Positions 1,079 to 61,264 of a stretch of 64,000 nucleotides of DNA are shown here, in pieces. A model generated the notes under the pieces. That model ran no database searches and was not told the origin of the DNA. It saw nothing but the letters and a program-made list of their open reading frames with translations. Both the position numbers and the translations under genes were made by a program. The DNA comes from Moniliella sp. 'wahieum' (taxonomy: Eukaryota), in the NCBI GenBank assembly GCA_003971905.1, contig RSEE01000046.1, forward strand, positions 62,001 to 126,000. The letters run 5' to 3'. Numbering within the stretch: the first letter of the stretch is position 1; each line of letters starts with the position of its first letter.

Positions 1079-3393
1079 GATATGGGGCGCGAGGTGGAAA
1101 GGTGGGGGGAAAAGCTGCTCGCTATACTGACAGTGCTGTCCTCTGATGGTTTTGTTGCTTTGGTCCTGTTTACATCCGTTCTTTTCCTTTCCCCCTTGGA
1201 TGGATGACCTCGTTTCCCGTCTTTTCTCTCTCGCACCCACCTCGATTTTTATGGCGCTCAGGCCGCTGTCGTCTTGTGGCCGCTGCCGCGGCACGGCGGC
1301 GGGCTGGGGACTGTCTGCCCTGCTAACATGCACTCGATACCATCTCTTCCATCACCTCATCTCCCTGTTTTACCACTTGGACCTGCTCCCTGGTGCCGAT
1401 GGTGGAGGCAAGGATATCATGCGCGGCAGATATAGAGGGAGCTCGTTGATAGCGCCGATGCCGGGCGTCTGCGTGCTTCCCATTTCGGAGACTCGAGGCT
1501 TGGCGGAGGCGCTTTAGCCCGTCTGTCTTCAGCGCTTCAGTTGAAAAGGACTTAAATAGGGGTCGAATTTAAGCCATGGTAGGCGCGATGGGAGATGCAC
1601 ATACACCCAGGGCCGCCGCCGCCACCGTCACATGTCAAGCACTGTTACGTGTTACATGTTATGCCCAAGGAAGACGCCTGTGCATGTCTGACCTCCAGCT
1701 GCTTCGAATTCAGGCTGGGCCACCTTGCCTCCCCGAACACGCATAGTGACCATTATATTATCCGCCTGCACTTGGACGCACCGCGTCCTCCGGGCGCTCA
1801 GCTCAGCCTCCCTCGGGCGCCCCACTGAAACCAGCGCGTGCTGTCCCGGTGTGGTCGACTAGGGGGTCTGGCTAGTGACTGGTGGCAGTAGTGAGCGCGC
1901 TAGTGAGAAGTTACTTGTTACTAGGTACTTGTTACTAGGTACTATAGGTACTAGGAACTAATAGTGACTGGTGAAGCTAGTGGAGCTAAGTGACATCAGA
2001 CACTGAATACTGAATGGAGCGACTAGCTCGAAGTTTGAAAAGGGTAGTGATCTCAATGATAAGATCAATCGATAAGGCCCAAGGCCCTAAGGGCTAAGGC
2101 TACTCAGGCCTTCAGAGCTTCAGGACGCAGGCAGTGACTAGTGAGATCGATATAAAGGCAACGCTTGTCTTCAGCCGTACGACATGTTGCACAACGGATG
2201 AACGTCGAACTCCGCACACTGGTCCAATGCGTGTTGTATCGTCTCGCAATTGGTGATTAGTACTTAGTGACATGTGACATGTGACATGCGGCGTGCGACC
2301 ATGTGACCGTGACCGCGTGACCGGTGACTGGTGACCAAGGATGCATGATGCATGATGCATGATGCATGATGCACGATGCATGATGTTCGAGTTCGAAGCT
2401 CGATTGCTCGATGAGGCTGTGGACGGAGCCGGACGGAGCCGAGTGCGGGGTAATCGAGATCATCGGTTAGCGCTGCCTCAGCCATCAGCATCACCATGAA
2501 AATATGCATCAATCCGAACACGAGAGGAGAGATCATGCATCAGTAGTTGTGCACCTGGTGCACAGGCAGTAGAGCCGCATATGGCCCCAGTGCTTCAAGC
2601 GTCTAGCTTCAAGCTTCACGCGTCAGATCTCAGATCTCAGAGCTTCAGAAGATGCCACACGTATACAACGATCCGTCCGCGGCCAGACCCCATTGGCAAA
2701 AACTCGCCATCCCGCACGATCGAAGAGGGTATAGAATTGTAGCCATGAGTCAACTAGTCATCTTCTAGCGTAAGAGGTAACAGTGGGAGGGTGCGCTGCA
2801 GCCCAGTGCACATGGCGTCCTCCTTCCCTGATGGCCGGCGCACAAAGCTGAGGAAGAGGGCACTATACCCCACACCAAAACGAGATGCGATGCGATGGGT
2901 GGCGACGGGCGCGATCGTCTCTTTTGCCGCTCTCTTCCCTCTACCTAATTGCTGCCCCCTTCCCTTCCAGGCGAGCAAAGGGAGGGCACAGGGTTCGCAC
3001 GCATTTATCAGCCCTGGCCACTGAACACAAGGCTATACATCGGCCCAATGCCAATGGAGATGGATCAGGACAACTTCACACCGTTGCTGCACTTTTGAGG
3101 AGACGATCACTACACGACGAAGAGTGCAGGAGGTTGTCGTAGCACCACTGGATCAAAATGTTCTCCCGGTAACACTTTATTTTACGCTCGCGAGTGGGGG
3201 CACTGCCAAAATTAAAAGACGCTGTACGAGAAACAGATGTCTGTCCCTTTCCGGTGAGACAGTGTCAGTGCCATGTCTCACCACTGCGTTGGACATTTTG
3301 ACGGGGGAATTAATACAGGCCCAACATCAATAAAATCCAGCATAGTGGCCAACATGTATGGGCATTAATGACTTGCGCTCGTGCGCCCAGGGC

Positions 3394-3402
3394 ATATATA
3401 AG
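3394..3402 (+). promoter_or_regulatory. Putative TATA box
   Basis: ATATATAAG about 60 nt upstream of the ATG at 3463. Confidence 0.45.
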
Positions 3403-3462
3403 TACGGGGCCCAGATGTGCCCTTCCTCCCTCCCACCACCCTCGCCCCCCGTCACGCCCAAG

Positions 3463-13231: not shown

Positions 13232-14558
13232 TGCGCTCACTGCCGCCTTGGTCGGATATGATACCCTGTTGGAGCCTAATTCTATCCCAATCATTGCTGC
13301 TGTTGCACAACGAGGTCACGTTGGCCTCTTTGGCCGCGCATGGAATGGCCTTCTGATCATATCACCCCACGTATCCGCACCTTCTCCCCCACTCGCGTGC
13401 GGATGACGACTTGACCAGGTTGCAAATGCGTGCTGGAGTAAACTGAAGACGATTCCTCCAATTCATTCGCCGCTTTGCTCCGCGCTCACCGAGACTTTTA
13501 GCCCCATCGACTCTACCTGTACGCTCATTTGAGTTGGAACGTGTTAAACATTGATATAAGCAGGAGAGTGCCGGCCGGTTGAGGGTTGAGGCGTTGAAAC
13601 GTCGAGACGTCGAGGCCCTTAGGCCCTTAGGCCCTGAGGCGAAGGGCGAAGAGGCAGATAGATATGGTGACGGACAGTCTTCCAGCTTCCACATGCTGAT
13701 GAGGCCGAGGCAGGTTTGGCCGGTGCGGTCACGGCAGTCGTGCACATCATGGGCCCGAGGCCGCACATGTGCATGATGATGAGATCATCGACTGTGCATG
13801 TGGCCTGTGTGATGTGATGCAGATGTGACCCACGGGGCCCAAGGTGGCAAGCATGTGACATGTGACATGTGACGATCGACTGGTAGTCCGCTAGTGTGGC
13901 TAGTGACTATAGTAGTGACCTATAGTGACCCGAGCTAGGACAGCGGGCAGCTATTTAATAGCTCACGCTGACGCTTGTCGCAGCTATAGTTTCCCCTACG
14001 CCTCACAGGCTTCTCGCAGCGTCGACTGCGCAGCCACAACTACGACGGAGGCACACATGTGCAACTGCACTCTTTTTTTTATTTTTTGGGCTTATCGACC
14101 TGCCTGCAGGAGAAGATGTCGATAATGCATGTACGATCGATGTTAATGGTCGTTGGTCGTATGTCTTCTCGGTCGCTCAGTAGTAGGTGCAATGATCGAC
14201 ACTAGTCACTATAGCCAGGTCATACATAGCTAATCGAAAATGCCGGTAACAAGGTTCCGGATAGATATGTGAGGCCTACGTACGAAATTCAAGGTGGGCA
14301 AGGCCCACAAGATTGTGCACCAGAAATTTCGATTAGCCATGTAGTATGGTTACACGGTGCGCTTAACGTTCGCCACGTCCGTCAAGATTGTGCCCGCCCC
14401 ATCAGCAAAAAGCGTATATCAGGGGCAGCCAGTGCGCATCCTTAGTAGTACTCGCTTCTTCCCCACGTTCCTTTTCTCACAACCCCGATTCACCCAGTAT
14501 CTTCCTTCCGCACTGGCGCACCTTTGAGTGAGTGCTCCAACCGGACCAGCCCGCCATC

Positions 14559-18148: not shown

Positions 18149-18183
<35 letters not shown>

Positions 18184-18551: not shown

Positions 18552-19729
18552 GTGGGTGGGGGGACACGGGGGGGATGCGGGTCGTGCGGCACGGGTGGCT
18601 GGTATCGGGGCAGAGAGCGGAGCGGAGCGGGGGGCGGACGAGGCAAACAGACGACGGGTGGGCAGCAGCACAAGTGCCGCGGAGGCTGGCGCAGGAGGAG
18701 GTGGGGGAATGGGGAGGGGGGGGAGGGGGGGGAGGAGGGAAGAGGCGGAGGCGGAGGAGGCGAGGAGGAGGAAGCGGGAGGAGGTGGTGGTGGTGGTGGA
18801 TGGTGGTTAGGCCAAGGGACGGCAGTGGGCAGCCCGGCGGTCTGAATGGCAGGGGAACCAAGACTGGCGCCGTGCTGGGTGCCCCAAGACAGCCCACCCG
18901 CTGCGGCGGCAACAGCCCTCCGATCCTCGATCCCCGCTTGCGGCGACCAGGTGCTGCTGCTCGTCACACGCTCGTCACTAGCGTCACTAGCACCCACTCC
19001 CCGACCGGTGGTGGCAGTAGCACCCGCAGCGCACCACGCCACCACCAGTCTCTGCGTCGCCTCGCCTCCCCCGTCACGCGTCACCGCCTCACTTCCCCCT
19101 GTCGCCCCTACACTGGCGCCATGCCGCTCCGCCGCTGCATTGCAAGCCACTGTGTACACGCTGGAGGCTGCCCTACTGCTTCACGCCGTCTCGGTTCCTC
19201 GACACTCAATAATCCTCATTGGCCTCATTAATTCTCATTAATCATTGGCCATCGATAATCTAATGGATCGCAACGCGTAATCAATAATGAAGACCAATTA
19301 CCCTCTCGCTACCCGCCTTCGCTCAAGTGCCCTAGCCCCCCCCCTCGCTACCGAACGTCAGGAATCCGTCTCTTCCACCACTGCCCCCCAAGGGACAGTA
19401 ACAGTCGGGCTATATGCGAGGGAGACCAAGGTCCTGATGTCACAGAGACGGGGGAAATGCAATATCGTTCGTGGGGGACACAAGAGGCATCGGGCAGAGA
19501 ACAGCCGTAAGGGAAAGGGAAAAGCGAGATGCACGGGATGCAGAATTGATGGAAATTGGAACGAGGTTTGGTATGCATGACACCCAGCGCCTACTAGGCG
19601 CTTGCCGTTTGACCACCACGCCCCACAGGCCTCAGGCTGAGGCCTCATAATCTCTCTGCCCACAGAGTTCACCATTTCACCACTGTAGTATAGCATACCT
19701 GCATCGCACTACTAAATACTCCCGCGTTT

Positions 19730-20622
19730 ATGGACCCCCCTACTATACATCTGACAAAATGGCACGGCTTTGAGCACTATGAACCCACAGTTTCTCTTGG
19801 CCACCACCTGACCTCTACTGCCCCCTCACCACTGGCCAGTGCTGGTCAAACTGCCCTCCGGTTCCGATACAGCCCACACCCCACCCCTTGTCTCGTGAGA
19901 ACCCTGAGCTAAGCCAGATGGGGGCTGCAGGTTTGGCCCGCGACGCGGTCGTTGGAAAGCGGACGCGCAAGTTCCACCTACCACCGGCTGTGCATCTCAG
20001 TTGGCGAGCCTGCGCATGGCGTCCCCTTTTGCTCCTCCGAACAAACGCGCCGCCATAGCGTCAAGAGAGTAGGGCCAGGTGGTAGGCTGCCGAGCGCAGC
20101 AAGTACGATGCCCTGAAGGCCATGGGCACCTTCTAGGACACGAATCTATAATACCTCCCCAGCACACTGTGCTGTTAGCGCGCTTCGTCTAGGCGGTGAA
20201 GATGAACGCTGATAACACCTTCAAGAAATTCAATGAAAGCTCTCGTCTCGTGGCCCGCGAGGACCTCCAGGACACCCCCGACTTTTATCCGGCGGATGTC
20301 CTTCACCTGTACCCCATCTGGTAGAGTCCGTGAGAGTCAAGCCACGACATTGAAGTTACTGAGTGCTCCATGCCACCATCGTCGACTCTTGCTCTCTCAA
20401 TTGATGTGCTCTACGCCGCGGCACCAAGCGGCTCTATACGACTGTGACCAGCAACATTTCCTCCTTCACGCCCTGGACCGTTTAGGCAAATGCAAGACAC
20501 TGCAATCCCTCCGTCTCTCCATCAACGTCGACATCTTCTTGCCGCCCAAGCCCCCCGACGGCCTGACGACCTCCCCCCTGCCCGACGCTGAGCACCGTCA
20601 TCAGTACCACCGTCCCTTGTGA
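19730..20622 (+). CDS. Possible hypothetical gene or fragment (frameshifted)
   Basis: Coding-like pieces MDPPTIHLTKW..., MNADNTFKKFNESSRL...DVLHLYP and LLHALDRLGKCKTLQSLRLSINVD; no family recognised. Confidence 0.25.
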
Positions 20623-21986
20623 TGGGGGCCTTTTTGTTGGGAGCCTCGGTTGGACTGCTCTCTGATTTCGCATTCGCCCCTCATCCACACCTGCTCAGGT
20701 GCCACAGCAAGTAACCCCTGGAACGTTCGCTCGACGCACACATCATGTCCTCCTGGGCACATCCATGGTAGATTGGAATGGCGCCCACGCTGCAGGCCAC
20801 TTACAGTGACTCAGTCAGGTACTCCTCAGTACTCAGTAGTACTCAGTCTGAGTGGGGAACTCACGGGTCACCAGCCCGCATGGTCATGTCACGTGTCACA
20901 TGTCACATGGCTAGCCCCCACACCCACTCTTGCTATCTACGTCTTTCCCCTCCTAAGCTCTAAGTCTCTATGCCAGTCCGCTTCAAGTCCCTCGGGTGAA
21001 TACCGCCACCATCTCCTACCCTCATGCCTCAGGAAGAGTGAGCCTCACTTCCCTGCTCCAGCGCTCGAATGGAACCGAGGCACTGAATCTAAATCTGGAT
21101 TCGAATCCGGATCTAAATATCAAATCCAAATCCACTCGCAAAAAAACTCAATCAATCTGCATGTCAGCGCGTGTGTCAGAGTGGCTCACGCTCAGCGCGG
21201 TAGGATCAACCGCGCTCAGCCGCTCAGCCTAAGCCGTTCAACTTACGGCTCAACGTAACGTTGGGTTCAACGCCCCCGCCCAGCCCTATATACCCGGTAC
21301 CCACAGCCCTAGTCAAGCTTCAAGCTTCAACTTCAAGCTTCAAGAGTAGCTCATGCAGCGAGAGTTCAACGTTTGAATTCATAGCATGGATGAATGGACA
21401 ACTCGATTGGATTGGATACGGTGGTACGCGCCAGTGTCACAAGGAGTGGCAAAGGCCTGCACACATCGTCCATCATAAATCAATCAGTAGCACTCGTATT
21501 CAGAAACCAGTACAACAGTGCATCAGCATCATCGATATCATCATGCCTGAGCACTACATCAGCGCATATGGATAATCACCCATTAATCATTGGGCATCCG
21601 CACTCCGTAACTCAGTGTACTCAGTACCAGTCACCGGTCACCGGCCACTGACTAACTCAGTATTCAGTCTGAATACTCACTATGGGCTGAGCGCTTGAGC
21701 CAGCACACCAGTGGTTCCTGAAGCTGAGGGAGGCCTGAATTAATCACACGCATCACGCATCACTTGTCACATGTCACAGTCGCGTTCAAACCCATCGTCC
21801 CTCCCACGCTCCCGTCGAAGCGGGCGGGCTGCGCCCCGTGCCCAAGATAGAATCCCGCCAGTCTGTGGGGAGTGGGTCGTGTTGGTCCACCGGCCACCCC
21901 TGTCCACATGATGCATGAGCGTGTGCATGACCACCCTCGTCTGGCACCGAGGGCCTGCGCCGGAGGAGTGACTGGAGCCTGAAGCT

Positions 21987-22027
21987 GTTGAACGTTGAAC
22001 GTTGAACGTTGAACGTTGAACGTTGAA
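21987..22027. repeat. (GTTGAAC)5+ heptamer array (TGA+ACGT class)
   Basis: gttgaac x5 followed by gttgaa. Confidence 0.95.
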
Positions 22028-22985
22028 GTTGAAGCTTCCAACTTGAAGCGACAGTCTGGGGCCCTGAGGAGGTTGGAGATAGCGTGGGCTAAGCGCTAAG
22101 GCTAGTGCCTGGCTTCCTGAGGCCCGAAAGTCTGGGGCCTCGAAGGGTGATGGCGGTGCCAATGCGAAGGTGAGATGTGATATGCGATGTGCGATGCGTG
22201 GTTGCATGCTAGGCGCTAGAACGAGATAGGGATTACATCGATTATTGAACCGGCCTAACCGGTAACGCGTTGCTGGTAGGGCGACGGCCTGCTGGTTTGC
22301 CGAGCCAAGTCCTGCCAAGTCTACTTACTGGTAGGGCAGCCATAATGCATAACCGGATAACCTGCAAGGAAACCAGCTCTGCGCTCCGTGCTCCGCGCCG
22401 CTCCCAGCTAAAACCCAGCTGCCCCAGACCACACCCGCCCCCTGCCCCTGGCCCCGTGCTCCACGCTCCACGTGCCCTGGCCCAGAGTCAGCCGCCGCTT
22501 CATGCGGCGCACACTGGCCCTGGGCCATCTCCGCTGTTCGTTTTGCCACTGCCGCCTGGTGCTTGCCAGCGCGCGCGCTTCCGGGGCCACTGCCCCCAGG
22601 CCACTCCCACCCGCTGTGTAAGATTGCGCATGTGCATGCGCATAACCCACTGGTACCCACGGCTACCAACCTCTTGCCGCCCGTGGCGGCCTCCCACTGC
22701 ATCAGCACATCGGTCCAGCAGCAGCAACCAGCCAGTATTGTGCTTATGCCATCGACATCATGCATCATGCACCATGCATCACATGTCACGCATCTGCCGC
22801 ATCATGCATCACCCACCTCACCGGTCACCGATAATCAATCAGCGACCACCAAACTTCCCATACGCGCCCCTGGGGGACTGGGCTGTTGTTTAACCAGCCA
22901 ACCGTCGGCGCTTTACGGTCTGTAGGTCCCCCCCCACGGTGCCCACCCTCAGGCCTCCCCCGCCACCGTCCTTCTTTTCCACGCC

Positions 22986-26360: not shown

Positions 26361-27520
26361 ATGCGACGGCCCCATAGGCTTCACTCTTCACGCTTTGCCG
26401 TCACTGGGCCACCAATATCGAGTTGGGCAGCAGCTTTGAGTGCAACGCTCCTCCTCCCCTTTCACCGAGGGGTCCCCCGCATGCATGCCCAGGTTGATGC
26501 AGTTGCCCGAATGGGCTTTGGGGGAGAGAGCCTCCGTAAGGTGCACAGAGACCAAAGACACTGATCCGGCCATTCGAAGTCCTCTGCGACAGGCTCAGCT
26601 ACGTCTGGGGTAACCTGTGGCCCATCACTAGTCACTGCTCGAGCACCGATGGCACCGCCCAGTGACAGAAAGTGGCCATCTCCACGTTGGGGAGAAGGTG
26701 ACAATCGAAAGAAGTATTGGGCTTGGAATCGCTCCCAACAAATAGCTGGATCAGTGGTATGTCGCTGGGCTTACTCCCAAGGGCAGCGGTGCGCAGCCTT
26801 GTCCCCGGCCCAGGCAAGTGAAAGGGAACCGATGGAAATATTGAGCCTCTGTTGCAACCATTCATTTGCAGAAGGTACGGCTGGGACCAAGGAACTATAG
26901 ACCACCCTTTACTACCTTGCTGGCCCATACACGTCGCAGTTGGGCAGCCTCTCTCGTGCGGGATTCGGAACGAATGAGAGGAGGATATTTTCATCGTCTG
27001 AATCGCCTGGCTAGGCGGGGGCGAAGAATGCGGAGTGGCGCACAGTCAGAGTCCCCGGCGGACCCACACAGTACAGGCGCGGGGACCACGTTTTTTCCCC
27101 AAACCCGTCTTTGGCCCGGTCTGCAAAAAGCCGGCGTGCTCCATAGCGTTCTCCTCGGTTCTCGGTTTTAGCTGTGCTCGAATTGGCCGGTCCCATGTCA
27201 AGACGAGAAGATCAATCATGTACAGTTTCCGGTCATGGATCAGGCGCAGGCTCAAGCGGGTGGCCGACCGGCCGATTAAGGTCCAGTCAACGTGACCACT
27301 GGCCAATCTGCACTGGCACGATTCTTCGCCACCGACAGCTCTTGCCTGGCACAAGAGTCGATGGAACAATGTCGCCCATCTTGAGCACCAAGCCGACTTT
27401 GGCAGGTGATTTTGGAATACCTTGCTGGATTGCTTATGCCTGAGATCTGATGCCTGCCAGCAGGAACACGTCGAGTGGAGTACTTCAGTCTTCTTATGTG
27501 AGCCCAACCTCTAGCCCTCA
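26361..27520 (+). CDS. Possible PPR-like protein, heavily frameshifted
   Basis: tggaataccttgctggattgcttatgcc reads WNTLLD-AYA across one indel, which is PPR-consensus-like; other helical fragments (SSWAAALSA, FTTLLAH). Confidence 0.25.
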
Positions 27521-29142: not shown

Positions 29143-30138
29143 GGAGGACGGACAGACGACGGTCGAGGCAGAGGAGCTGGCCAAGGCAGGTTGGCTCTCG
29201 CCGCCCCTTCTCGGGTCGCCCCGGCACCGCCCAAGCTGGCTGGGCCGCACGGCCACACACTCGCCGTGTGCGGAGTCACCAGCACGCAGGGGGGCGCTCT
29301 GCCCGATTATTAATAACCCTACTCTCTGCCCTCGTTTTAGAAATGAATCGTGATCAAATGCTGGTCACAATGGTGTCCGTTACTGAGCACAAGTTTCAAA
29401 GTGTCAAATTGAAGGTGCAGTTCAATCAGAACCATAACACCTGTGGGAGAGTCGGGGGGAAGACGGGAGAATGCGAGTGGACCGAAAGTATACGCTTCCT
29501 TGGCAGTACACTACTATACTCAAAGATGCAAGGACTCGTTGCTACTAGAGGGGAGGAAGCATCGCTAGGACGGGAACTGAGAGCACTCAAAGGCATGAGG
29601 AATGAGTCCCAGGCTTACGGTACCCTAAGATGGGGGTGGCAACATTAATGACCGCAAAAGATGCTCAAAACGAAAGGATGCTGCGGTATGCTATGCTGAC
29701 TGATGGGGGGGGGACATGGATGACTAACACGTAACTATAAGGATCGAAGCTGCAGTAAGGGAGGTTGAACGTTGATCATAGTTGGGCCCCGGACAATCGA
29801 TAATGTGGATGAACAAGCCATGGCTTGCGCTGAGATGCTGAGGAAGGCTGAGGATCGTCATGCGAGGATCTATGCGCGAGTGGGCGGCAGTTGACTATAA
29901 TGGGTCAGGACCACAGTACTCGTTCTGAGTTGAAATGCCACGGGTAAGCCACTCTGCCTGCATAAGCGCGCGTCCTCCTGTCCTACCTCTTGCGCGGTCG
30001 CACCACCTTTCTATTAGTGGAAGCAGTGAAAGTATGGGGCATACGGCCTCTGCCTCGGTGCCCTAATACTACGGTCGCTGGCCATTGTTGCTCCGGGGGA
30101 GGCGCAAGCAATGTTATGCCGGACCCACCGCACCCGGC

Positions 30139-30149
30139 ATATATATAAG
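30139..30149 (+). promoter_or_regulatory. Putative TATA box of PMP3 gene
   Basis: ATATATATAAG about 115 nt upstream of the ATG at 30264. Confidence 0.5.
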
Positions 30150-30263
30150 TACTCTCATCTGCCGGAAGTAGTTGTCCGTTTTTTGCGTCTTTACCTCCTC
30201 CGCTACCCGTCTACTCTCCACACCGCTACCTTTCCCTTTTATTTTCTTCTCGTTTTCTTTGCC

Positions 30264-30584
30264 ATGGTGCAACTCAACCTACGATTGGGGCATTGTGAGT
30301 CAATCTGAGAGTCTCGTCGAATTCTCTTTTCGTGGGACCTAAGGCCTAATTGGTGAAGTGATGGCCCGTGTACTATGAGGGTGGTGAGCTAACATCATGA
30401 TTTTCCCTTCCTATAAGCTGCTTATCACCCTTGTCATTCCTCCCATTGGTGTGTTTATTCTTACCGAGGGTGTGGCATCGAATTCTGGATCAACGTGATC
30501 CTCACCATATGCGGCTGGTTCCCCGGCATGCTTGAAGGGCTGTGGTGCTTCTACATGCACAACCAAGACAAGCTTCAGGCTTAA
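30264..30584 (+). CDS. PMP3: Pmp3/RCI2 family small hydrophobic stress proteolipid; intron 30295-30417
   Basis: LLITLVIPPIGVFI..CGIEFWINVILTICGWFPGMLEGLW (joined across an indel) matches the Pmp3 signature; GTGAGT..GCTAAC..AAG intron. Confidence 0.88.
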
Positions 30585-31831: not shown

Positions 31832-32462
31832 GGATGGCCAGATTATTCTGGACACATTTTTACGCCGCTCATTCACAAGATCATTATGTCCTTCTCTTCG
31901 CGCCTCTTATACGCATTGTTTGTCGCGCTGTGCTCCTCCTAATGCGCTACCCTCTGCACCCTGCCTGCTATCCGCTTCTCCCTCGACCAAACTTTATTCA
32001 CTGGTTACCCCCCACCCTTAACCCCTTTTACAATCGTTCGCTTAGGACGTCTCACACGTCCGCGATGGACAGCAGGACCACGATGCCCCCTTGTTACCTT
32101 TTTGAATGGTCGTGTATTTGCGTCTGTCTTGGGTCTCATGCCTTTGAAACTGTACTTGCACCCACATCTTTTAACGTTATGGACAGTGCCAAGTTGACGC
32201 GTATATTTGAAAGGCTCAAGGGAGTGCTGATTGGAGTTCGTCATTCCAAGAGCGAAAAGAAGAGAGTCAAGGGGGGAGGTGATGCTACTGGTTGCCTTCA
32301 CTTTCTCGTCCCCATGAGGGAGAGAGAGGCCGTTGTCCGTATCTCAAAGTGTATACGGGCCAAGAAGAGTGAGTTCAGCGAGGGCAACCTTGATGATTGA
32401 TCTGGGCCTGCCTCGGACACCTTGTGCATTGACATGTGAGCCAGCATATTCCCGCCGAAGTC

Positions 32463-39842: not shown

Positions 39843-40056
39843 GTTACAATACCCAGCTACGCTCCCGCTTGAAGCCATTTTCGTTACAGCTACATACATC
39901 GATCCTGATCATCGGTAGATGTTTCGCATGCCTCCCACCGGGAGATTCAATGCATAAGGGGTGGAAAGAAGAAAGGGGCTCAGATCAGAGCTGCGGTGCC
40001 GGTTCGGATTCACCTGGGAGAGAAAACGGGTGTTACACACATCCCGTTCGGTTGGT

Positions 40057-42188: not shown

Positions 42189-43716
42189 GGTGACGAAGGA
42201 GGTGGTGGAGGGGGGCGGCGCCAAGGACCCAGCTGGTCAAGAAGAAGTAGGCTGGAGATGAGCCGGAGAAAAGTCAAAATTGAAATGTGCTTTGCAACTC
42301 CACGTAAGCCCTGCAAGGGGCTGCCATCCTGTGCAGGGTGTGTGCCCTCCTGTGCCCGCGCTCGCAGGCCGGGATGTCATCGATGCTCGAGCATCATGCA
42401 TCTGGAGCCACAAAGCAAGCGATCGCCGACGGGCTCGCAGGGGGGCAGTGAAAGACTGTATTAATTCGGACATAAGAGCATTTTGGTCAAGCCCTGTGCC
42501 TTGTCGGGTTGGCAGGGTATGGTGAACATGTGAGCAGAAGTGGAGGCAGGGCAGCGAGGCAGTGTGCGGCCCTCGGTCTGTAGCGGGGCACTGGGCCCCA
42601 GAGTGGCCACGCGCAAACGCAAGCCCCGTGTCCCAGGTACCGAGCAGCAGCCGACAGCAGTCCCTCCGATCTCAAACCCCAGGCCCTCGTGCCTCGGCCT
42701 CCAACCTCAAATTCTCAAACCAGGCGGTGCTGTCCAACGCCTGTTCGGTTTTCTGGTCGACATCCATCTTTGTGTTTCATCTCGGCGGGGTCAGCTCTGC
42801 TTTGCGCATTCCTTCGTCTTGCCCCTACCTTGTTCTCTCCCACACCCGCCCAAACGGAATCGATCAGATTGAAATTGAAAAAGACCGCCGATCCTTCGGT
42901 ACGACTCAAACGCATTCGCGGTACGCGTGGTAACGCCTAAGGTAAAGTTACCGGCTACCTGCTACCCATGTACCATGTTACCGGTTACCATGACCTCACC
43001 GGTCACCGGTCACCATGCATGGCCTGAGGCGCTCAGGCGCTCAGGCGCTCAGGTATGTCACAGATGATTGGATGTGGGCAATATCCCCTGCAATACCCAG
43101 TCGCGTGGCCGCTTTGCCACTGGGACTAAGTACTAAGTACCGACCTAGTAGCTAGTGACTGTCACTAGTTACAAAGTCACATGTCAGTGACTAGTGAGCG
43201 CGTGAGCTAGTGACTAGTGACTAGTGACTATTAGTGCCTAGAGACATCCAGGCATTTAAATTGCCAAGCCAAAGCGCGCGCAGCGCGCAGCGCCTATCCA
43301 GCTTCCAGGCGCAAAAGAATGAGCCAATTTCAATTCTCATCATTCTGAACCATGCGAATACGAGGTGGTTCTCTCTCTCCCTAATAATAAAGTGTTCAAG
43401 CAACGGACTCTATCACACAAAAGATATGACGCGATGACGCAGGGAGAAAGGTGTGCACAGCAAATAGATGGACGTAGGGGGGGGGGTAAGAAAGTAACAC
43501 GCCAGACAGCAGCAGTTGGATAAACGGGAGACAGTGTGAAATAAGCACGAGAAAGAGGAAGAGGTTCGAAGAATAAGGAGGGGAGAGGGAGAGAACAAAA
43601 GAACTAAAGTACAAGGGTAACGTAGTGTATATATGCGACCATCTCTTACCGTCTCGTACGGACAGAGGGAGAAGAGAAAGAAAGATGCGAACACGCCCCT
43701 CAAGCAAGGGACGGAG

Positions 43717-45399: not shown

Positions 45400-46771
45400 G
45401 GGGACAGGGAGCGGTGGTGGGGGCGGGGGAGGAGTAGAGAATAAACGAGATAGGAAGGATGCTAGCTGGATGCACTGCTGTCTGCTGCTGCCTGGCTAGT
45501 GCAGGGCTGGGCTGTCTGGGCTGTGGCCATCGATCATCGACCGTCAACCATCAGCATCATCGCCAGCAGAATGCAGAGCCAAACCAACCGAGACAAGCGG
45601 AGTGCCACTGGCGAGCTGCCGGGGGCAACAGTGGGCGCCAGTAGATCGCAGCAGGCGTCCTCTGCCCCAGTGCGCGCATGCGCCTGAAACAAATCCATTT
45701 ATTATCGACTATCGATGCAGCATCGCATGACATCATGCATCATGCCGTTCTATCTACATCTAGCAGCGTCCGTGCGCTGCCCCCCCGCCGTCCAGCCGCC
45801 GTATCTAGCTATCACATGTCACATGTCACATGTCACATCTGAGATCTGAACCGTTCTCCAGCGCACGTCCCCGTTTCTGCCATCGGCCGCAGGAGGGGCG
45901 TGCGCTTTTGCAAGTTGCTGCGTCGGCCCACAGCGAGTAGGAGCCATGCAGAGTTTGGAAGCTGGGCACTGGGGGCGGGATGCTGGGCGCTGGGTGCTTG
46001 AAGCTGGACTGATATCTTCTTCAAAGCTTCAAGCTTCAAGCTTCATTAATCATTGCTTCATCGTTCAGTACGTTCATCGACATCGATCATCGCACAATAA
46101 GCCCATTGCTGTTGCGCGCTCAGCGCGCTCACATTCACAGTATTCCATGCGCTCAATATTCAATCTCAATCGGGCGGTGCGCGTGTGTCTAAGACCCGGA
46201 CCAGAATGGAGGGTGTAGCGCGGGGAGATGGAGGCATTGTTTCCGCTCGCAACCGACGGAAGTATTCACCAACGCTGCTATCATAGAGGGAAGACCGGGA
46301 CTGACTCAGTACTCCGACTCGGTACTGACTTACTGACGTACTGATTTGCTGTGATAATATGCAGCACGTGACACGTAAGTACTGAGAAGAGTACTGATGC
46401 ACCGATGCTTGGTGCGGCTATTTTGTCCTGTACACTGTGTGGCCTACTGTGGCAGACAGTGTTTGACCCGGTTGTTATACGAATGTCCCGCTTGTCCCTT
46501 GCGTGTGAGCCTTTGTCACACGTCACGCGTCACGCCGTGGCTTCACTTTTTCTGAGAAAACGCAGGCATGGCCGGGATGCCCGCCAGTGATCGGGTGAGA
46601 GGCGGAAACCTTTGCGGCAACGCAGTACGAGCGGATAAAGCAAGGAGTGAAGAGTTCCTTTGCTGTATGGGAGAGCTCGCTGCTCGCGGCCCACCGCCGG
46701 TGATGAGAAGCATGAAGCACATCCAACATGGGTATCTTCACAAGCGCTAATTAACGTTTAACTCTCAATAT

Positions 46772-47250
46772 TTAGACAGACGGATGATCGATGATCGGAG
46801 TCGGAGTCACCTCTGCCATGCTGTCGACGCCTTTAGCATCGTATAATTTGGTGGGCGAGACGTGCCAAAAAGCCAGGACCCTCCGAGGCACCGCCCATCG
46901 ATCACACCTCTCTCGGTAGTCCCCAGTATGAACCTTTGGATGTGGTTGTAATAAACGGCTCAGATTGTCCCAGTCAACGGGGGGGACTTGCCAATGAATG
47001 CGGTGATCGAGAGGTGATGCCGATGGGTCCTGCCAATCCCCCATAGACATTGCCAAGTGAGTAAATGCTGAAAGCATAGAAGTTGAAGAATGTACTAGGA
47101 GAATCCGAAAGGACGACTATAGTGGACCTCAGGCTCGCTGTTACTAGGTATACTGACGACACGTCCCGCAACTACATATGTGACCTCCATGATGCCCTCA
47201 CGGTATACGCAATCAACATCTTCCCCGCCTAGACTACAGGAGCTACTCAT
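46772..47250 (-). CDS. Possible small hypothetical gene
   Basis: TATA-like CTATATAAT near 47550 and a pyrimidine-rich leader; ORF fragments MSSSCSLGG.., FFNFYAFSIYSLGNVYGG. Confidence 0.2.
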
Positions 47251-50403: not shown

Positions 50404-52109
50404 GATGATGAGGACTACGAGGTAATAGACAAGTGGACAGGTGGTGGAGTAGGAGAAAGAAAAGGGATTTTGGCGGGCGGGCGAGGGAGGAGGAGGATGC
50501 CTTTCACTCGAAGGGGGTGCGCAATGACGACAGAGGGGCACACGGCAGTGGCCTGCTGGGGAGAACGTGCTGAGCAGGCCTCGTTCGGGGTTGTTCCGAG
50601 GGGGCTCCCGCGGGGGGCATCTCCCCGTGGCTGTGTGGGTACTCAGACTCTTCAGCAGCTAGTGACTAGTGACTGCGAAAGTGCGTATATCGCAGTAGGA
50701 CTGGAGGAGTGTCGAAGATGGCGGATGTGGTCTGTGCCATGCACTGTGGCCATTGTATGATAGCTGAGGCTGCTCAGGCTGCGCACTATGACATCATCGA
50801 AATCGAGATCTCTTCAAGATTCGGATCTGGGGCCCTCTGGGATCTGGCATCTCTGACGCGTGACGCGTGACGGTTATATTAGCCCGTAAAAATTAAGCTC
50901 CTGCCTGCGTCTTAGGCCTTACTGCCCTTTTGCTCTCAAAGCGCTTCTCCTCGTTCAATTCCAGTACGAATCCCAGCCAGCTATACCACGGCCCATGGAG
51001 CCCATGGTTCCAACGCCTATACTGGCGGCGGCAGAAATGTACAGCATCAGTACCATCACAGTCCTCCTACACTGCAAATACACTCTCTAGGTATTACACT
51101 GGGTGTACCGTCCAGGATCCGTCATTTTATCGACACAACGTCATTTCTGAATTTCTGAATCAGCCACAGTCAACGCTGTGCGCGTACTTCGCATTCGTCT
51201 CGGCCGTCTTGGCCACATGGTCAGGTCGATTGCAACGTGACGAATCTCAACAGTAGAGGTTTTTTGGGCGAAGAATAATAGAGAGAGAGAAAACTCGTTA
51301 GGGCTGTGGAAAGATAACGTATACGAGCCTGTACCAATGCATGACGGAGCCAAGAGCGTTTGCTGGAATCAGCGCAGGCCTTTCAGTACATCGGAGGCTC
51401 GCCAGGAGCCCTACAGCCCCCTCTGATGAGGGAAGGTCGAAGATGGACGTGCTGTGAACCAACACTGAAGGGACGAGAGGAACGAGAGAGAGAGGCCCAG
51501 GGGATATGTTCCAGAAGGTGTTACACCTACAATAACAGACGTACTCTCTCAGACACAAAAGACGGTTGGCGGGGGCTGTGGGTTAGCAACCCCCCCCCCG
51601 GATGTCTGCCGCGCTCATTAATCATTCGCATCCACGCACTATCTCCTCTTGGAAGCGAATAGCGGGCGGTACAGGTCCTGACCTACTGGTGGCTTCCCTA
51701 GTATCTCAAAAGCAGGTTTTGGCGCCAACAACCAGCACACGCTGGACGAGGAGATCGCCTTATGAGGCGCAGCGTTTCTTTATTGCCCCAGCCTTAAAAA
51801 GCTCTGTAAATATGGCTGCAACATAGGGATGCGCATCACATCACACTTGCCCCATTGGCACCCGGTGATCGAAATGTGATGTGAATTTCAAGGGTGATGC
51901 ATGATGCATGATGCATGATGCAGATGGATGAAAGATGGAGCAACCACGCGGTACCTGCTGTAGTCGTTTCAAGTTGCAACACTGACGAATGAATGTTGCT
52001 TTCAAATCGCTTCCCAGTGCAGTATTCCGCTCCAGAGCGGAGTTGGTGGGAAGGTGGCCATGACCTTCTTGGCTGGGCAACCTCCGCCTGAGCTTGAGCT
52101 TGACCAACC

Positions 52110-53196: not shown

Positions 53197-53599
53197 TGAC
53201 CTTGTCCATGGGCACATGCATAACATGAATTCGACGGATATCTGCGTTGTATGTGTAGATAATTGCCATCGCTATTAACCTGTGTCTTCCGCGTGACCGC
53301 GCCACAGCTGGTTGAAGCAGGAGGACGATACTGATGGGCATGCGCCATCCTCACTCTCCTGTGGGAGTAGCGCGCAGATGCATGATGCATGATCATCGAT
53401 GCTAATCATCGATCGGCGTGCGATGGCAGGACGAGGTCACCAGTACAGACAGCCGTGCAGGCCCCCAGGAATGAGCATCTTGGATGAAATGTTCATGTGT
53501 TACGTACTCCCATCGTGCGCGTGGAGCGCCAAGGTCTACCCTTTGGTTCGGGCAGATGGGGAAGGTGTCCACGCTACCATCCCCATCACTACCTTTACC

Positions 53600-55689: not shown

Positions 55690-58575
55690 CAATGGTAGCG
55701 CTACCAAGTAACTCACGCAAGATGAACAGGTCGGTTTAGGTGTAGCGTCTCCCTGTCCCAGCCTTAAGCTCTGTCATATGATATGGATACAGTATATGTG
55801 CGAGATGTACCAAGTGTTTCGTGCTGATTCAAAGTGCTAAGCTTGTGAGGGACAATTGAAGGGGCGGAAGAGGGGAGGAGGTGGATGAAACTTGAGGTTG
55901 GAGGTCAAGGCTGAGAATTGAAGAGCCACCATTACAGAGGCAATGTTGAAGCTTGACGCTTGCTGATCGAGATATCGTAAGATCTCTGAGAGATGATGGA
56001 TGGGGCCGGACGGTAGTATACACATCCTCGCTGCGGCAATATAGAATTAATGAAAAGTCTGGGGCACTCCTGGAGGCAGTTTGTGAGGAACTCTTCAGCG
56101 GGTACCTTGCTTTCGTAACGCGTATAACACGCAATAATGTTTGCACCATGAAAGTTGGTATATACGTTGAACTGTGGTCGTGGAGGAAGGCATCCTTGGC
56201 TAATACGGAAGATCGGGTTTCGATGCATCACTGCCGGGTTGCTCCTCTCAGATCTCACACCTCTCGAACCCACTGTCTTCTGTATTAGCCAAGGATGTCA
56301 CGGGCGGGCGCCGCCAGGGGGGCCGCCCTGGGTTTTTTTGGGGTACAATCCCTTAGGCGACGGTAGGTCGACTCACGGTAGTTTCGGGCTTAGGCTGGTT
56401 GGTGTGTCCGAGCGGAGCTAGGGACGAGGAGAGGCCTTTGGTGGGGCGGCTGCACGTGTGGCAAGGCTGCGTCTGCACCGGCTTGGGCCGTAGTAACGTG
56501 TCTGAAGCCTCCGGGACTTAGGGACGGGAGGAGGCAGCGGCGGACAAACACTGCCTTAACTGGAACTGGGAATCGCCGCGACCGAAGGAGGGCTCGCGCG
56601 ATTGGACTGACGAAGGGCTGGAGGACGAGGTCGGAGGAGATGTCGGACGCTAACAAGAGGAACTGCCTGTACTGGATCAATTGGCTGGAAACGGGCAGGA
56701 GTCGGACAGGATAGGCGGGAAAGGGACGAAGGTGGAGACGAGAGATGACGAGATTGGAAGGGGGGAAAAGATCCCCATCAACCAGGGGTACAGGCAGGAT
56801 CAAAAGGGAAACGGATACAAGAGGGGGTGTAGAAAGGAAGACATGTCAAAAGCGGGGTTGGTCGCCGCAGGCGCGACCGAGAAAGGAAAAGGAAACGGGG
56901 CCGGGGCGACAGTCGTCGCCACGGCACTGGAAGCTCGGTGGCCGTATTTAGGCCGGCCGACTTGGACTTGGGCGGGGGGCGACTATTGTCGCGCGGAGCA
57001 TGGCCCTTCGGCCACGATCTTAATTTAGCCAACCATCATCACACTTGATTGGCCTGCGGTGCACGCTCTACTTGGCATGTGCGGAGCAGGCGGGCCTTAG
57101 CTTGGGTCGGACCATCTCGTGTCCGCCGCAGCCCGTGACAAAGGATGTGCTTAAAGCTTAACCACTGCACTATTGAGTACATTGAGTCTGGATGGGAGCG
57201 TCAGAAGGATAGACCTCTAACACAAGTGAAAAACGCTGCCGGAGGAAGGAACTGCTTCGACTGTTGGTGGCAGTGGAATGCGACAGGAATGCCAAGCGCC
57301 AGGGATTCACTCCAGAGCCATTCTGTCTGCTGATGATGATGATGCGCTGGTGTTGTGTCGCATGTCACCAACAAATGGTTGGCGAGCACACACTAGAAAA
57401 GTCTTCCTCTGAGGAGTCTGGTCGGAAAGAGGTTAATTCACTGTGGCTCACATGTCTGCCAAGATCTTTCGTATCCACGTGCGCAGCAGCCGGTTTGGAA
57501 GCGAATGGCGGGGGGCGGGGGGTTCTGAGATCTGATGTGCTGGCCAATCAAATACCAACTGTGGCCGTTGAGGCGGGTGGGCACAAGAGCAAGCAGCACA
57601 CGCCGGACGAGCCCAGTCGTGTGCCTCACTCACTGCGTCGATGCTTTCGTAATGTACACAATGCATCATGCATCATGCATCATGCACCATCGATCGATCA
57701 CCTCGATCACCGCCCACCTGCATGACCCCATGCATCAGCGCACCTCGGGTGCTGAAATCGGAACTGCGCCGACGGGAGCCTAGCCAGCCCAGCTCCACGA
57801 GCTAGCCACTGCCTGGCCCCCGCGCAGATCCACGACGCTGCGCCTCGCATGCGGGCAGCCTGCAGCAGTATGCAGGGGGGGTTGCCTCCCCAGTGGCTGG
57901 CGTGGTGCCAGGGTCGGTCGGCTTGCTTTATAGCATTAGAGCGCTTAGCGCTTGCAGCGCTTCGTGGTACAGCACCTGGGCTCGACTGCTGCCTCTTCGT
58001 CGCGGCTGCGCGCCTGGGGAATGGGCAGGCGGGGAGGTTGCCCAGCACCTGTCGATAATGCGGGATGTGATCTGCATGGTCCATGCGTTGGGCGGCCCCC
58101 CATCACAGCATCACCGGTCACCGGCACCAGGCGGCTGCCCACCGTGTTCGGTCGGAGTCACGCACAGCTCAGCCCATCGATCATTGATCGTCTTGATCAT
58201 CCTCAGTGCAGGGCACTGCTGCTGGGGCACGGGGGCACCATGCCCCCTGCTGCCTGCATGCAGCTTGCTTCTTTGTTGTCCAGCAGTGTGCTCTGCTGCG
58301 TGCGCTGAGCACTCTGGATGATGCATGATGGCGCGGCGCTCGGTGCTGGGCTGGGCGCTGCTCCAGCTGCTGGCTACTGGCTACTGGCTACTGGCAGCTG
58401 GCAATGGGCAACTGGTGGGACTGGTTGCTGGGGGCGGGCAACTAGTTACCTGCTGCTCGGCACCAGCATCAGCGCATCCGTCTTCTTCCCTACCTTTGCC
58501 TCCGCCTCTCCGCCTCCACTGTCTCCTGCTCCTCCTCCTCCTCGTCTCCGCCTTGGCGACTGCCCTTCCTGCGCC

Positions 58576-60018
58576 ATGGCCAGCAACCCTCCACACACAC
58601 CATTCCCTCGTCCCCTTCCCAGTCTCCCCCCGGTCGCCCGTCTGGCCCTCGACAGGGTGTCGTCCAATTCGACTGCTACGTCTCCTTCCTCGTCCGCCTC
58701 AACGGACGACGACCCCTCCTTCTACGGCCCCCGCTCCACCCGCTTCCACCCGACACATTCTTCCACCGGCGGCAGGCGAACACAATCGGCTCATCGCACT
58801 GCCTCTGGTGCCACCAATGCCACCACTGTTCCCACCAGCACGATTCCACTTCCAACGATCGCGCCCAATCCCATCCCTTCCTCCTACGCCGGCTCCAGCC
58901 GGTCCCCCTCCGGCACCCCCTCCAAGTCTCAGTCAGCGCAGGCACCCATCATCAGCGCCAAGATTGGTCCCGGCTTACTGAATGCGACGTTGCCAGACCA
59001 CGGCCTCATCCAATGCCTCCCTGCCATCATCAACATCACCGCTGCCCAGGACCAGGCGGTATCCATTACAGTGGTCGACTACCATAACATTCTCGAGCGC
59101 CTCGACGTGACCATCCCGCCGCCTGTCACGCTCTGGAACTGGACTGAGGTCGATTTCCCTGCCGGGACCGAGCTCCGGGTTGAAGTGGCAGTGGGTGGGG
59201 GGGATGTGAGCTCCCCCAATTGGGCTAGTTGGGTAGGCTTGACCCACGTTCACTTGGGCCAGAATGTGTCGAGTTGTCTTGATGCGGGCGACGTGGCCAG
59301 CTCGCCACAACGGCCTAAACATCATCATCGCAACTTGGGCACCATTTTGGGTATCACCATCCCCCTCGTACTTACGATTGGCTTGGTGGGGGCCTTGGTG
59401 GGCCTGATGATCCTCAGAAGAAAACGAGAGCGCAAGGACCGAGCTGCGCGTGCGGCTGACCCAGCCACTCAGCTGGAAGACTGGCACGATCGAGCAACGA
59501 TGATGTGGGAGAACAGCAGCCGCGGGCTGATGCGGCACATGACTCGTCCCGATGGTGGGCGGCGTGGCTTATCGCTGGATTCAAGTACCAACTTGACATC
59601 CGGAGGGATGCATCCCACCGCCTCCGAGTCCCCCTTTGATGATGCCGAACACGTATCCCCCTGGAGAGCGATTCAAGATGCGCTTCCGACATACAAGCAA
59701 AGTCAGCGCGAAAGTCGGCGTGTGGCGCTCCCTTCGTACACCCGTGCTTCGACGTTTACGCGCGCCATCCCCTCCAATATGACCCGCTCAACCAACCCTT
59801 GGCCTGGTCTTCATCTCGACCCACCTTCACCTACCGTCCCCCCAACTCCGGTAGAGAGGAATGAGGCTGACCAGCTGCTCTCGCCCGTCCCCGAGAGGAC
59901 TGCGGAACCCCACAGGCCAGAGTCTGAGCGGACTTTGTCGTTGCATTCAACCGGAGCTGAGTCCTCAGCTCTGGGCTCGACGTACCAGCTTATCGAACCT
60001 TCCCAGCCTCGTCCATGA
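58576..60018 (+). CDS. Single-pass membrane protein: Ser/Thr/Pro-rich N-terminus, beta-rich Cys-flanked domain, TM helix, cytosolic tail with LPxY motifs
   Basis: Intact ORF; IQCLPAIINIT...WNWTEVDFPAGT...VSSCL; TM LGTILGITIPLVLTIGLVGALVGLMIL followed by RRKRERK; LPTY and LPSY. Confidence 0.75.
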   Translation: MASNPPHTPFPRPLPSLPPVARLALDRVSSNSTATSPSSSASTDDDPSFYGPRSTRFHPTHSSTGGRRTQSAHRTASGATNATTVPTSTIPLPTIAPNPIPSSYAGSSRSPSGTPSKSQSAQAPIISAKIGPGLLNATLPDHGLIQCLPAIINITAAQDQAVSITVVDYHNILERLDVTIPPPVTLWNWTEVDFPAGTELRVEVAVGGGDVSSPNWASWVGLTHVHLGQNVSSCLDAGDVASSPQRPKHHHRNLGTILGITIPLVLTIGLVGALVGLMILRRKRERKDRAARAADPATQLEDWHDRATMMWENSSRGLMRHMTRPDGGRRGLSLDSSTNLTSGGMHPTASESPFDDAEHVSPWRAIQDALPTYKQSQRESRRVALPSYTRASTFTRAIPSNMTRSTNPWPGLHLDPPSPTVPPTPVERNEADQLLSPVPERTAEPHRPESERTLSLHSTGAESSALGSTYQLIEPSQPRP

Positions 60019-61264
60019 ACCATTTCTCCCTCGCTTGAACCTTTCCTTCCCTCGCATAAACTACCCTCCACGGACTTGTCCCCTTTCATGTGCCTTCCCC
60101 CTTTGGGCCCACAGTATGCTGGTCGGATCAAGATGCACTACTCCTTCGCTTTTTTTCCCGCTGCCACCACCATCCCTCGTGTTCCGTGACCATGCATGAC
60201 CCCTTCTTTCATGTGGTATTTGTTGTTATCCCGCCGTCTGGTCTCATTCGCTTTTGGTTAAGCGTCACTGCGATCTCATTGATCATCCGAATTCATCCCT
60301 CTGTCCTGTTTCACTCGTGGCTCTCCCTCCCTGTGACTAGGCGCTTCAATGAGCTTCTTTGCTATACGGCTCTTGCCATGAGCAAGGCATCATTTGATTC
60401 TGACGTTGACAGTAGGCGTTGGTGTGAGCTGGTGTGCTATGACACAATCGGCGGACCCCCAAAGATGGAGTTGGCAGCAGCGGCGAGCTGATGACTCGTT
60501 GGTCGTTGTTGTTGGGAGCGCTAGTGGGCAGACAAGGAGGAGGGAACTAGTCAGTACTACCGAGCCACTCAGTGAGTCGAGCACCAAAATCTCCACATCA
60601 ACGTTATTCGTACTCACCTATCGATCGTACGTTCATCGATCAGCAAGTTGTCGATAAACCTTGTACGCCTTTATTAGGCGTTGAGGCGCGTTAGGCCATA
60701 GGTGGCTTTCCTGGATAAAAAGACGCCCCCCCGCCAGGGGCAACTTTACGCCACCATGTTGTCCAGCACCGGGCGCGTGTAACGCACAGGCCACATGTGC
60801 TGCAAGCCGCGCAGGTGGGCGCGCAAACTAGGCGCTAAGAGAGATCTGGATTCCGGGTCTATCGGAGGCTTGCAACATACAAACCTTAGTACACTGGCAA
60901 TCGTGCAAAACGATGGGCTTGCTTGGTCGGTTCAGCTCGCCTCCCCCAGTACTCAATCCCCATCTAACTCTTTCCCCCTACCACCTGCAGTGCCGCGGCT
61001 TCCATCTCGTCTGCTCCACCGCACAGTACATTGCGCTTCCTCCTTCTCTCTCTCTGCCTTCCCACCGACCACTGGCTCTTTCCTCTGTACCAAGACACAT
61101 TCGCACCCCAATCGGCCGTCTCAGTGTGGGTGTGTATACACACTGAGGGGTTATTGTGTTGGAATCCAAGCCTGCCTAAGCGGAGGTTAGAGAGCTGCTC
61201 TCCACAGGGCTAGCTCTCCGTTTACTCACACTGGGACATTGGGCGCTGCTGTACCCCGGCCAAC

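Follow-up and report, generated by a model that had tools for sequence, protein, structure and literature searches.

The 64-kb stretch of DNA analysed here (the window throughout) carries in its intergenic spacers many short arrays of 7-bp period in which a T-N-A triplet alternates with a 4-bp palindrome, and we show that their elementary unit is a polar structure of 12 bp, 5'-TNA-x1x2-x2'x1'-TNA-x1x2-3', that is, a 5-bp direct repeat with an inverted copy of x1x2 between its two members. The 4-bp palindrome is the product of this junction, x1x2 followed by its own inverted copy, and therefore any palindrome can occur in it. The arrays themselves were described in a first-pass annotation of the same DNA; the 12-bp polar form is a new observation beyond that description. 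We favour, at somewhat less than even confidence, the reading that the units are mutational scars, 7-bp insertions born at T-N-A, and not a sequence code. All observations come from this single window, and expected counts are from Markov models of it, which were trained with the arrays left in the sequence and are thus conservative.

Period-7 arrays follow one rule

Tandem Repeats Finder returned 118 rows for the window, with period 7 conspicuously in excess. At period 7 there are 18 exact runs spanning 2.5 units or more, compared with three each at periods 6 and 8, and 32 exact runs of this period are at least 15 bp long, whereas 30 third-order Markov simulations of the window gave 1.0 on average and never more than 4. 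The unit in 25 of these 32 runs is, in some rotation, a 6-bp palindrome plus one base (0.1 expected), and it takes the A-xxxx-T form in 24 of the 25. No excess of palindromic units is seen at periods 4–6 or 8–11 when exact runs are compared with simulations, and the window contains no long perfect arrays of 6-bp palindromes.

Two T-N-A triplets separated by a 4-bp palindrome occur 97 times against 7.7 expected, and the same frame around a non-palindromic 4-mer 107 times against 102.8; the first-pass annotation had proposed that palindromic cores would be enriched over non-palindromic ones, and within the window they are. Palindromes flanked by A-N-T (5 observed, 6.7 expected), C-N-G (21 and 22) or G-N-C (20 and 24.9) show no such excess, nor do palindromic spacers of 2 bases (26 and 27.2) or 6 bases (2 and 1.7). 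By triplet, TCA/TGA lead in number (76 of 92, with 2.2 expected) and TAA/TTA have the highest fold excess (16, with 0.16 expected); CTA/TAG (4 and 0.3) and ATG/CAT (18 and 2.0) are also in excess, all other triplets being at ~1–1.3x expectation. We infer that the ATG/CAT excess reflects TGA-TGCA arrays parsed in another register, because ATGCATG holds both TGCA and CATG. Hexamers consisting of A, a 4-bp palindrome and T show no enrichment where the flanking T and A are missing (105 against 125.9 expected), so the object is not the hexamer palindrome by itself. In 92 of the 97 cases both T-N-A triplets have the same middle base, and the two triplets are therefore a direct repeat; fold-back (inverted) duplication, which would give TGA...TCA, is ruled out, as the middle bases differ in just 5.

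Fourteen of the 16 possible 4-bp palindromes are present, AATT and TATA being the missing ones, and the earlier claim that many cores share one geometry thus stands. The arrays on which it was based are all present: each of the 24 coordinate ranges cited holds its assigned units, with 15 of the 21 seven-base claims corresponding to perfect arrays, six (with indels or compound arrays) matching at 0.63–0.98, and three short GGCC or TTAA examples being single units of one palindrome between two TNAs. A search of the full-text literature, which does not extend to subscription journals, found no description of the T-N-A plus palindrome rule.

The elementary unit is polar

The 97 matches fall at 73 loci, of which 59 have a single palindrome between two TNAs and 14 are multi-unit chains reaching 5–6 identical head-to-tail units, with imperfect units propagated. 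Among the 54 single units with the same middle base, period-7 identity continues for 2 bases beyond the 10-mer, on one side only, in 18; other extensions are (1,1) in one, (2,2) in two, and (0,4) in one. Flank positions +/-1 and +/-2 match in 54–70%, and positions +/-3 to +/-4 are near the 27% background. A total extension of 2, arrays included, is one-sided at 21 loci and two-sided at one (p=0.0025), and the modal run is 12 bp, below the 14 bp of a tandem duplication.

The form 5+2+5 accounts for 52 of the 127 period-7 runs of 12–13 bp, against ~6 expected, and a count on both strands gives 110 canonical 12-mers where 0.55 are expected. In every canonical unit the two bases at the junction are x1x2 in inverted copy. 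The mirror form, in which the repeat's first two bases are the ones copied, is seen alone once and the canonical form alone 97 times; the remaining 13 mirror counts are TGA-TGCA-type units in which both forms coincide. The same 2-base junction is enriched in longer repeats too (7 of 6+2 against 1.4 expected, and 5 of 7+2 against 0.3), with the extra bases 5' of the TNA, such that the fixed point is the end two bases 3' of it. On the strand with the 3' two-base extension N is C or T at 26 of 33 polar loci (p=0.0013), and at 17 of 21 in the strict polar class (p=0.007); the left flank is weakly G/C at -2 (25/33) and seldom T at -1 (3/33). The 7-mer that an insertion of this form would add, x2'x1'-TNA-x1x2, can be read as a stem of two pairs closed by a TNA triloop.

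Other targets were considered and rejected. Symmetric targets of 5 bp (x1'-TNA-x1) or palindromic targets of 7 bp are ruled out, as just one locus has extension (1,1) and two have (2,2). A target-site duplication consisting of TNA, with the core as a remnant of transposon ends, would require ~14 element families with different termini and is ruled out; it is further contradicted by the identity of the first half of the core with the downstream flank.

Several minor features accompany the units. Junctions between TCA-phase and TGA-phase segments at 20836–20852 and 21655–21680 form longer palindromes centred on a single T (ACTCAG-T-CTGAGT and AGTATTCAG-T-CTGAATACT), which suggests local inverted pairs of units. 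An identical 12-mer, TCATTAATCATT, is present at three separate intergenic sites (19235, 46043, and 51615), and could stem from an independent birth at each of three TCA-TT sites or from a common binding site. Period-8 arrays are present at 13588–13640, 31214–31235, 43027–43053, and 46322–46344; three of the four follow the 7-bp rule apart from an additional base (e.g. TCA-G-GCGC, TGA-C-GTAC), which fits an imperfect unit having been propagated, and for the array at 31214–31235 (CACCCTGT) no parse fits.

Distribution relative to genes

Rule-conforming runs occupy 1,110 bases (1.7% of the window), and the 73 loci are grouped in 13 regions matching the gaps between Pfam-supported genes in an approximate gene map. 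Just two loci are in confidently coding bases, though these hold 621 of the 2,671 TNA sites, and one of the two is a chance-type match without flanking periodicity; coding and non-coding DNA thus differ in density as the first-pass annotation had supposed. The coding map, for which 1,801 Pfam-supported codons served as training set (GC 72% and A 8% at third positions), assigns 16,748 bases (26%) as confidently coding; it is conservative and misses at least one Pfam-supported exon, so that the rest is partly coding. A first coding map based on codon usage was too insensitive and was set aside.

Units lie 5' as well as 3' of genes, and the orientation of arrays bears no consistent relation to the neighbouring genes, with one array type occurring in opposite orientations upstream of genes on the same strand (at 51895 and 57661). 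The polar loci, examined along the window for orientation blocks as a test of replication direction, form 14 runs against ~17 expected, which is not significant.

ATGCATG-type units contain short ATG...TGA reading frames just before or at the first ATG of downstream open reading frames (ORFs), at 53377–53402 (ORF ATG at 53399) and 58315–58330 (ORF ATG at 58318). Gain or loss of a unit at such a site could alter upstream ORFs or the start context.

Predicted folding

Eight arrays modelled as single-stranded DNA have predicted hairpin energies between -1.9 and -13.3 kcal/mol, and for the seven uniform ones the predicted fold has a TNA triloop closing a stem with one mismatch per unit. Among the eight, the 47-nt TGA-ACGT array alone clearly beats its shuffles (z = -4.6), the others having z of +0.2 to -2.5, and the 12-bp single units can form nothing stable. 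A structural or cruciform function is thus unlikely for most loci, because the predicted hairpins are weak and single units have no stable fold. The self-complementarity except at every seventh base that was noted earlier is correct, but the hairpin extrusion drawn from it finds little favour in these predictions.

Occurrence in other DNA

As controls we used unrelated metagenome contigs containing three exact copies of one unit (the (TGATGCA)n seed), comprising 119 loci and 406 kb, 80 of them with 5-kb flanks. Palindromic cores other than the seeded one number 120 in this DNA against 1,451 non-palindromic cores, a ratio of 0.083 that is near the 0.0625 expected by chance, in contrast to 97:107 (0.91) in the window; the pattern is therefore not general to DNA or to genomes holding such arrays. 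The boundary phases of the seeded control arrays could not be used, as the search pattern fixes one boundary.

Seven control loci with a common contig-name prefix have a higher ratio (17 against 73, or 0.23) than the other loci (0.074). Loci with this prefix hold canonical-reading units in their flanks (e.g. L020, L046, and L053), and extension class (0,2) is seen in L020 and at both L053 loci. Contig L053 contains (TGA-ACGT)x2 followed by TGA-AC at 4405–4423, with (TGATGCA)x3 ~600 bp away at 5001–5021, and encodes a DUF6535 protein, which we take to be of a fungal family. Canonical units are less dense in these fungal-looking contigs than in the window, and the same process may act at lower intensity in other fungi, but the loci were chosen by their seed array.

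Possible origins of the units

In the reading that we favour, a unit would be born when a strand end two bases 3' of a TNA enters a zero-loop hairpin or turn-around intermediate, analogous either to off-centre opening of a sealed hairpin, as with P-nucleotides, or to the turning of a polymerase onto a displaced flap of 5 nt, whose 5' end would then be ligated. Rejoining of this end 5' of the same TNA would give a net gain of 7 bp. A zero-loop 2-base inverted copy beside a fixed-length direct duplication is expected from a hairpin-sealed end opened two bases off centre, and the same junction is expected from polymerase turn-around on a displaced 5-nt flap with its 5' end ligated. The initiator would be an endogenous, strand-specific replication or repair error starting at a nick or flap, which we favour over symmetric transposon excision because the units are one-sided and strand-biased. 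Where at least two units are present, ordinary replication slippage would extend them to arrays of up to 5–6 units and would also propagate imperfect units such as the 8-bp variants; slippage would thus account for the many arrays of 2–6 units and for the 8-bp variants propagated within them. A gain of 7 bp shifts the reading frame, and selection against frameshifts would therefore remove units from coding DNA and leave scars only outside it. With 14 cores tolerated, palindromy can be 'read' through base pairing alone and not by a protein. The first-pass annotation had offered as one of its options a mutational process particular to the lineage, in which a hairpin-type step at TNA sites would be followed by slippage, and the anatomy of the units supports this option; two details suggested for it are not supported, as simple fold-back copying does not agree with the shared middle base, nor a PIF/Harbinger duplication of 3 bp with the 5+2 structure.

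The short template-switch mutations of the four-point model (Loytynoja and Goldman 2017, PMC5453318) are similar in that a local replication error copies bases of the complementary strand and generates small inverted repeats and complex insertions. The window units share the inverted adjacent bases with this class but not its freedom of sequence and length, being restricted to T-N-A and mainly to 5+2, whereas template-switch events are bound to no single trinucleotide or length, and are not known as a source of repeat families throughout a genome.

Several observations weigh against a scar origin. That the units are insertions is deduced from their structure alone, in one 64-kb window, and both the 5+2 form and the polarity were recognised post hoc, on 54 and 33 loci respectively. 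The reading does not account for the restriction to T-N-A, A-N-T, C-N-G, and G-N-C not being enriched, and stability arguments for T-N-A specificity fail because of the lack of A-N-T enrichment. Multi-unit arrays are far commoner than random re-hitting predicts, and a second process must therefore be assumed; moreover, boundaries of the 7n+5 (or +6) type are kept by 5 of the 14 multi-unit arrays and the others are fuller, and at 8 of the 14 the boundaries depart from 7n+5, so that slippage or further events are needed. The candidate intron gaps (~1.9 kb) contain no real matches, leaving intron carriage undecided, and the pyrimidine polarity was not reproduced in the small control set (4 of 11 polar events), which consists mostly of AT-rich contigs of other organisms.

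A further suggestion, which we regard as possible but more doubtful, is that this fungal lineage has a hitherto undescribed, site-specific DNA-processing activity at T-pyrimidine-A that writes stereotyped 7-bp insertions through non-coding DNA as a self-renewing, rule-based repeat family, which would occupy a measurable part of each intergenic region and constantly reshape promoters. Candidates for such an activity would be a nickase, a hairpin-forming nuclease, or a peculiarity of polymerase or flap handling. If the scar reading holds, the units would be a clean and countable mutational signature with a defined target (T-N-A), length (7 bp), and polarity, of a sharpness seldom met in eukaryotes except among transposons and immune receptors. 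Such a signature would direct the search to a particular enzyme, or to a defect of repair, in the Ustilaginomycotina, to which the window belongs (see below), would show the birth, beyond mere expansion, of microsatellites with an unusual unit length, and would be a steady source of variation in promoters and 5' untranslated regions, because some arrays carry ATG...TGA mini-frames just before start codons. To our knowledge standard repeat surveys stop at 6-bp units, and a 7-bp class would therefore have been overlooked.

A fixed-length duplication, a sequence-specific target, and a zero-loop palindromic junction are the classic signature of hairpin-chemistry elements, and the units could be scars of cut-and-paste transposon excision in which a 5-bp TNANN duplication with hairpin-sealed flanks (hAT/Transib/RAG-type) is followed by repeated cycles and slippage. 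The fixed-length direct duplication is indeed found (52 of 127 short runs against ~6, and 110 canonical 12-mers against 0.55), and lineage specificity would follow if one element family were present in some lineages and missing from others. P-nucleotide junctions at hairpin-sealed ends, as in V(D)J coding joints and the excision footprints of Ac/Ds and other hAT elements, likewise have a direct target duplication beside a zero-loop palindrome of inverted flank-end bases, typically 2. Here, however, the duplication is of 5 bp and opens with T-N-A, the inverted copy is always on one side, and the units are strand-biased, are unaccompanied by an element in the window, and form arrays. An element with terminal inverted repeats would leave P-nucleotides from either flank, which does not agree with 97 canonical-only units against one mirror-only unit. 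Despite ~60 scars in 64 kb, no terminal-inverted-repeat element is present among 22 inverted-repeat pairs in the window, and no transposase domain was found by Pfam in the 410 of 483 ORFs of at least 70 aa that were scanned (the other 73, of 70–94 aa, are beyond 39.1 kb). We know of no superfamily with a 5-bp TNANN target. PIF/Harbinger elements duplicate a 3-bp TWA within a longer palindromic target, and share with the units a T-N-A trinucleotide as target, TAA/TTA having the highest fold excess in the window; the units differ in being 5 bp plus 2 inverted bases and in having TSA as the commonest triplet, and no such element is present in the window. Transposon excision is thus an unlikely source.

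We consider it equally improbable that the units are ordinary microsatellites filtered by structure, such that, of 7-bp duplications of every kind, only quasi-palindromic units persist and expand as slipped hairpins that escape repair. Arrays of up to 5–6 identical units, the propagation of imperfect units, the placing of the TNA in a triloop of the predicted hairpins, and the missing long perfect arrays of 6-bp palindromes all agree with such filtering; it leaves unexplained the T-N-A requirement, as C-N-G or G-N-C stems would be stronger and are not in excess, and the one-sided 12-bp singles, which have fewer than two copies. There is also no palindromic excess at periods 5, 9, or 11, the hairpin energies are modest, with seven of eight arrays not clearly better than shuffles, and the pattern is missing from 406 kb of other organisms, though hairpin chemistry is universal. 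Microsatellites grown by slippage have identical head-to-tail units, as do the chains here, but the smallest members in the window are not whole tandem duplications. In CAG/CTG or CGG microsatellites the repeat pairs with itself around regularly placed mismatches, which probably stabilises slipped strands, and the window arrays are predicted to pair in this way too; each of those repeats has one fixed unit, however, whereas the window has 14 cores with a fixed trinucleotide and a period that is not a multiple of three. Bacterial heptanucleotide simple-sequence repeats (Rehm et al. 2015, PMC4692102) are similar in having period 7, an intergenic location, and many different loci per genome; they are mostly G-rich or non-palindromic, are often inverted array pairs, and follow no reported T-N-A plus palindrome rule, and their prokaryotic hosts do not fit with the kinesin, SNF2, ribosomal L14e, and forkhead domains, the split ORFs, and the best named matches of the window, which are in the Ustilaginomycotina.

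A functional role in cis, as factor-bound arrays at 7-bp spacing or as hairpin, cruciform, or nucleosome-excluding promoter elements, seems still less probable. Units do lie between genes, some of them near start codons (51895–51922 and 53377–53393), and clusters fill presumptive promoter regions, but the 14 cores share just symmetry, the fixed T and A positions being their sole common sequence. Most loci are single units, both orientations are present upstream of same-strand genes (51895 and 57661), units lie also on the 3' sides of genes (e.g. 42978–43230 and 1628–2641), the hairpins are weak, and a 7-bp spacing does not keep phase with the DNA helix. The two other options of the first-pass annotation, a code read by a factor and the positioning of nucleosomes or DNA shape, find no support, given the variety of cores, the preponderance of single units, and the lack of consistent orientation to genes. 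An assembly or base-calling artefact is hardly credible, with about a dozen different units, a precise internal rule, strong coding depletion, and canonical units also in independently assembled metagenome contigs.

Clusters and arrays in the window

The largest cluster, at 19074..22827, has 23 matches and includes the longest array, (TGA-ACGT)x5 at 21987–22027 (41 bp exact), as well as (TCA-AGCT) at 21313–21344, TCA-CCGG at 21630–21644, and four TCA units at 22758–22827. An intergenic cluster of 15 rule-conforming matches at 1628..2641, the positions of which include the 3' sides of genes, contains (TGA-CATG)x2 at 2267–2288, (TGA-TGCA)x3+ at 2340–2385, and a mixed in-phase chain of TCA with AGCT, CGCG, GATC, and GATC at 2609–2641. 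The 14 matches at 45733..46797 include (TCA-CATG)x3 at 45812–45838 and a second mixed in-phase chain (TCA-AGCT, AGCT, TTAA) at 46024–46052; in these two chains different palindromes follow each other in phase. Ten matches at 29307..32647 include (TAA-CCGG)x3 at 31186–31211, which is canonical on the minus strand, and TCA-ACGT at 31092–31113, and nine at 42978..43230, between the 5' side of the 5-aminolevulinate synthase (ALAS) gene and the 3' side of the forkhead-like gene, include (TCA-CCGG)x2 at 42996–43014, TAA-GTAC at 43125–43140, and (TGA-CTAG)x2+ at 43207–43230.

Smaller sites include a (TGA-CATG)x2 array at 13852..13873, upstream of the MFS transporter gene, and, in the region 50659..50872, TGA-CTAG at 50659–50674 and (TGA-CGCG)x2 at 50854–50872, both on the plus strand. 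Two further plus-strand arrays precede genes: (TGA-TGCA)x3 at 51895..51922 is ~190 bp upstream of the ATG of mitochondrial ribosomal S10, and (GATGCAT)x2.4 at 53377..53393 ends 6 bp before the UPF0172 ATG at 53399. The (TCA-TGCA)x2+ array at 57661..57686, on the minus strand, is opposite in orientation to that at 51895. A typical single unit in the canonical polar form, TCA-CT-AG-TCA-CT, is at 26625..26636 on the plus strand.

Genes and other features of the window

The base composition is ~57% GC, with the split reading frames of eukaryotic nuclear DNA. The ALAS fragment has 84–86% identity to unnamed proteins and ~70% to named homologues from Sympodiomycopsis, Jaminaea, Thecaphora, Sporisorium, Tilletia, Exobasidium, and Malassezia, and the window is therefore nuclear DNA of a member of the Ustilaginomycotina. 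Pfam matches on the plus strand correspond to a protein kinase (75–761), kinesin (8395–9736), the MFS transporter (15126–16793), an HlyIII-family protein (23419–25034), an SNF2 helicase (35975–37975), a RabGAP (39162–39839), mitochondrial ribosomal S10 (52104–53225), and UPF0172 (53393–53998). Those on the minus strand are ribosomal L14e (25501–25764), the mitochondrial processing peptidase beta subunit (28103–29364), ALAS (40013–42172), and a weak forkhead match (44582–44902). Rfam at the gathering threshold and ARAGORN each gave no matches in the window.

Low-complexity coding stretches are present at 17663–19159 (minus strand) and 38290–38423; their content includes a 45-bp repeat in 3.1 copies at 17937–18077, CAG/TGC runs, a proline- and glutamine-rich ORF, and a GGA run of ~45 copies. 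At 56191–56340 a 22-nt inverted repeat (95% complementary, with 63 nt between the arms) is followed by a GC-rich stem and a T run, a structure that looks like a small structured RNA gene or a terminator and has no Rfam match at gathering score. A second inverted repeat, of 25 nt (84% complementary) with arms 71 nt apart, is located at 14223–14343, upstream of the MFS transporter gene.

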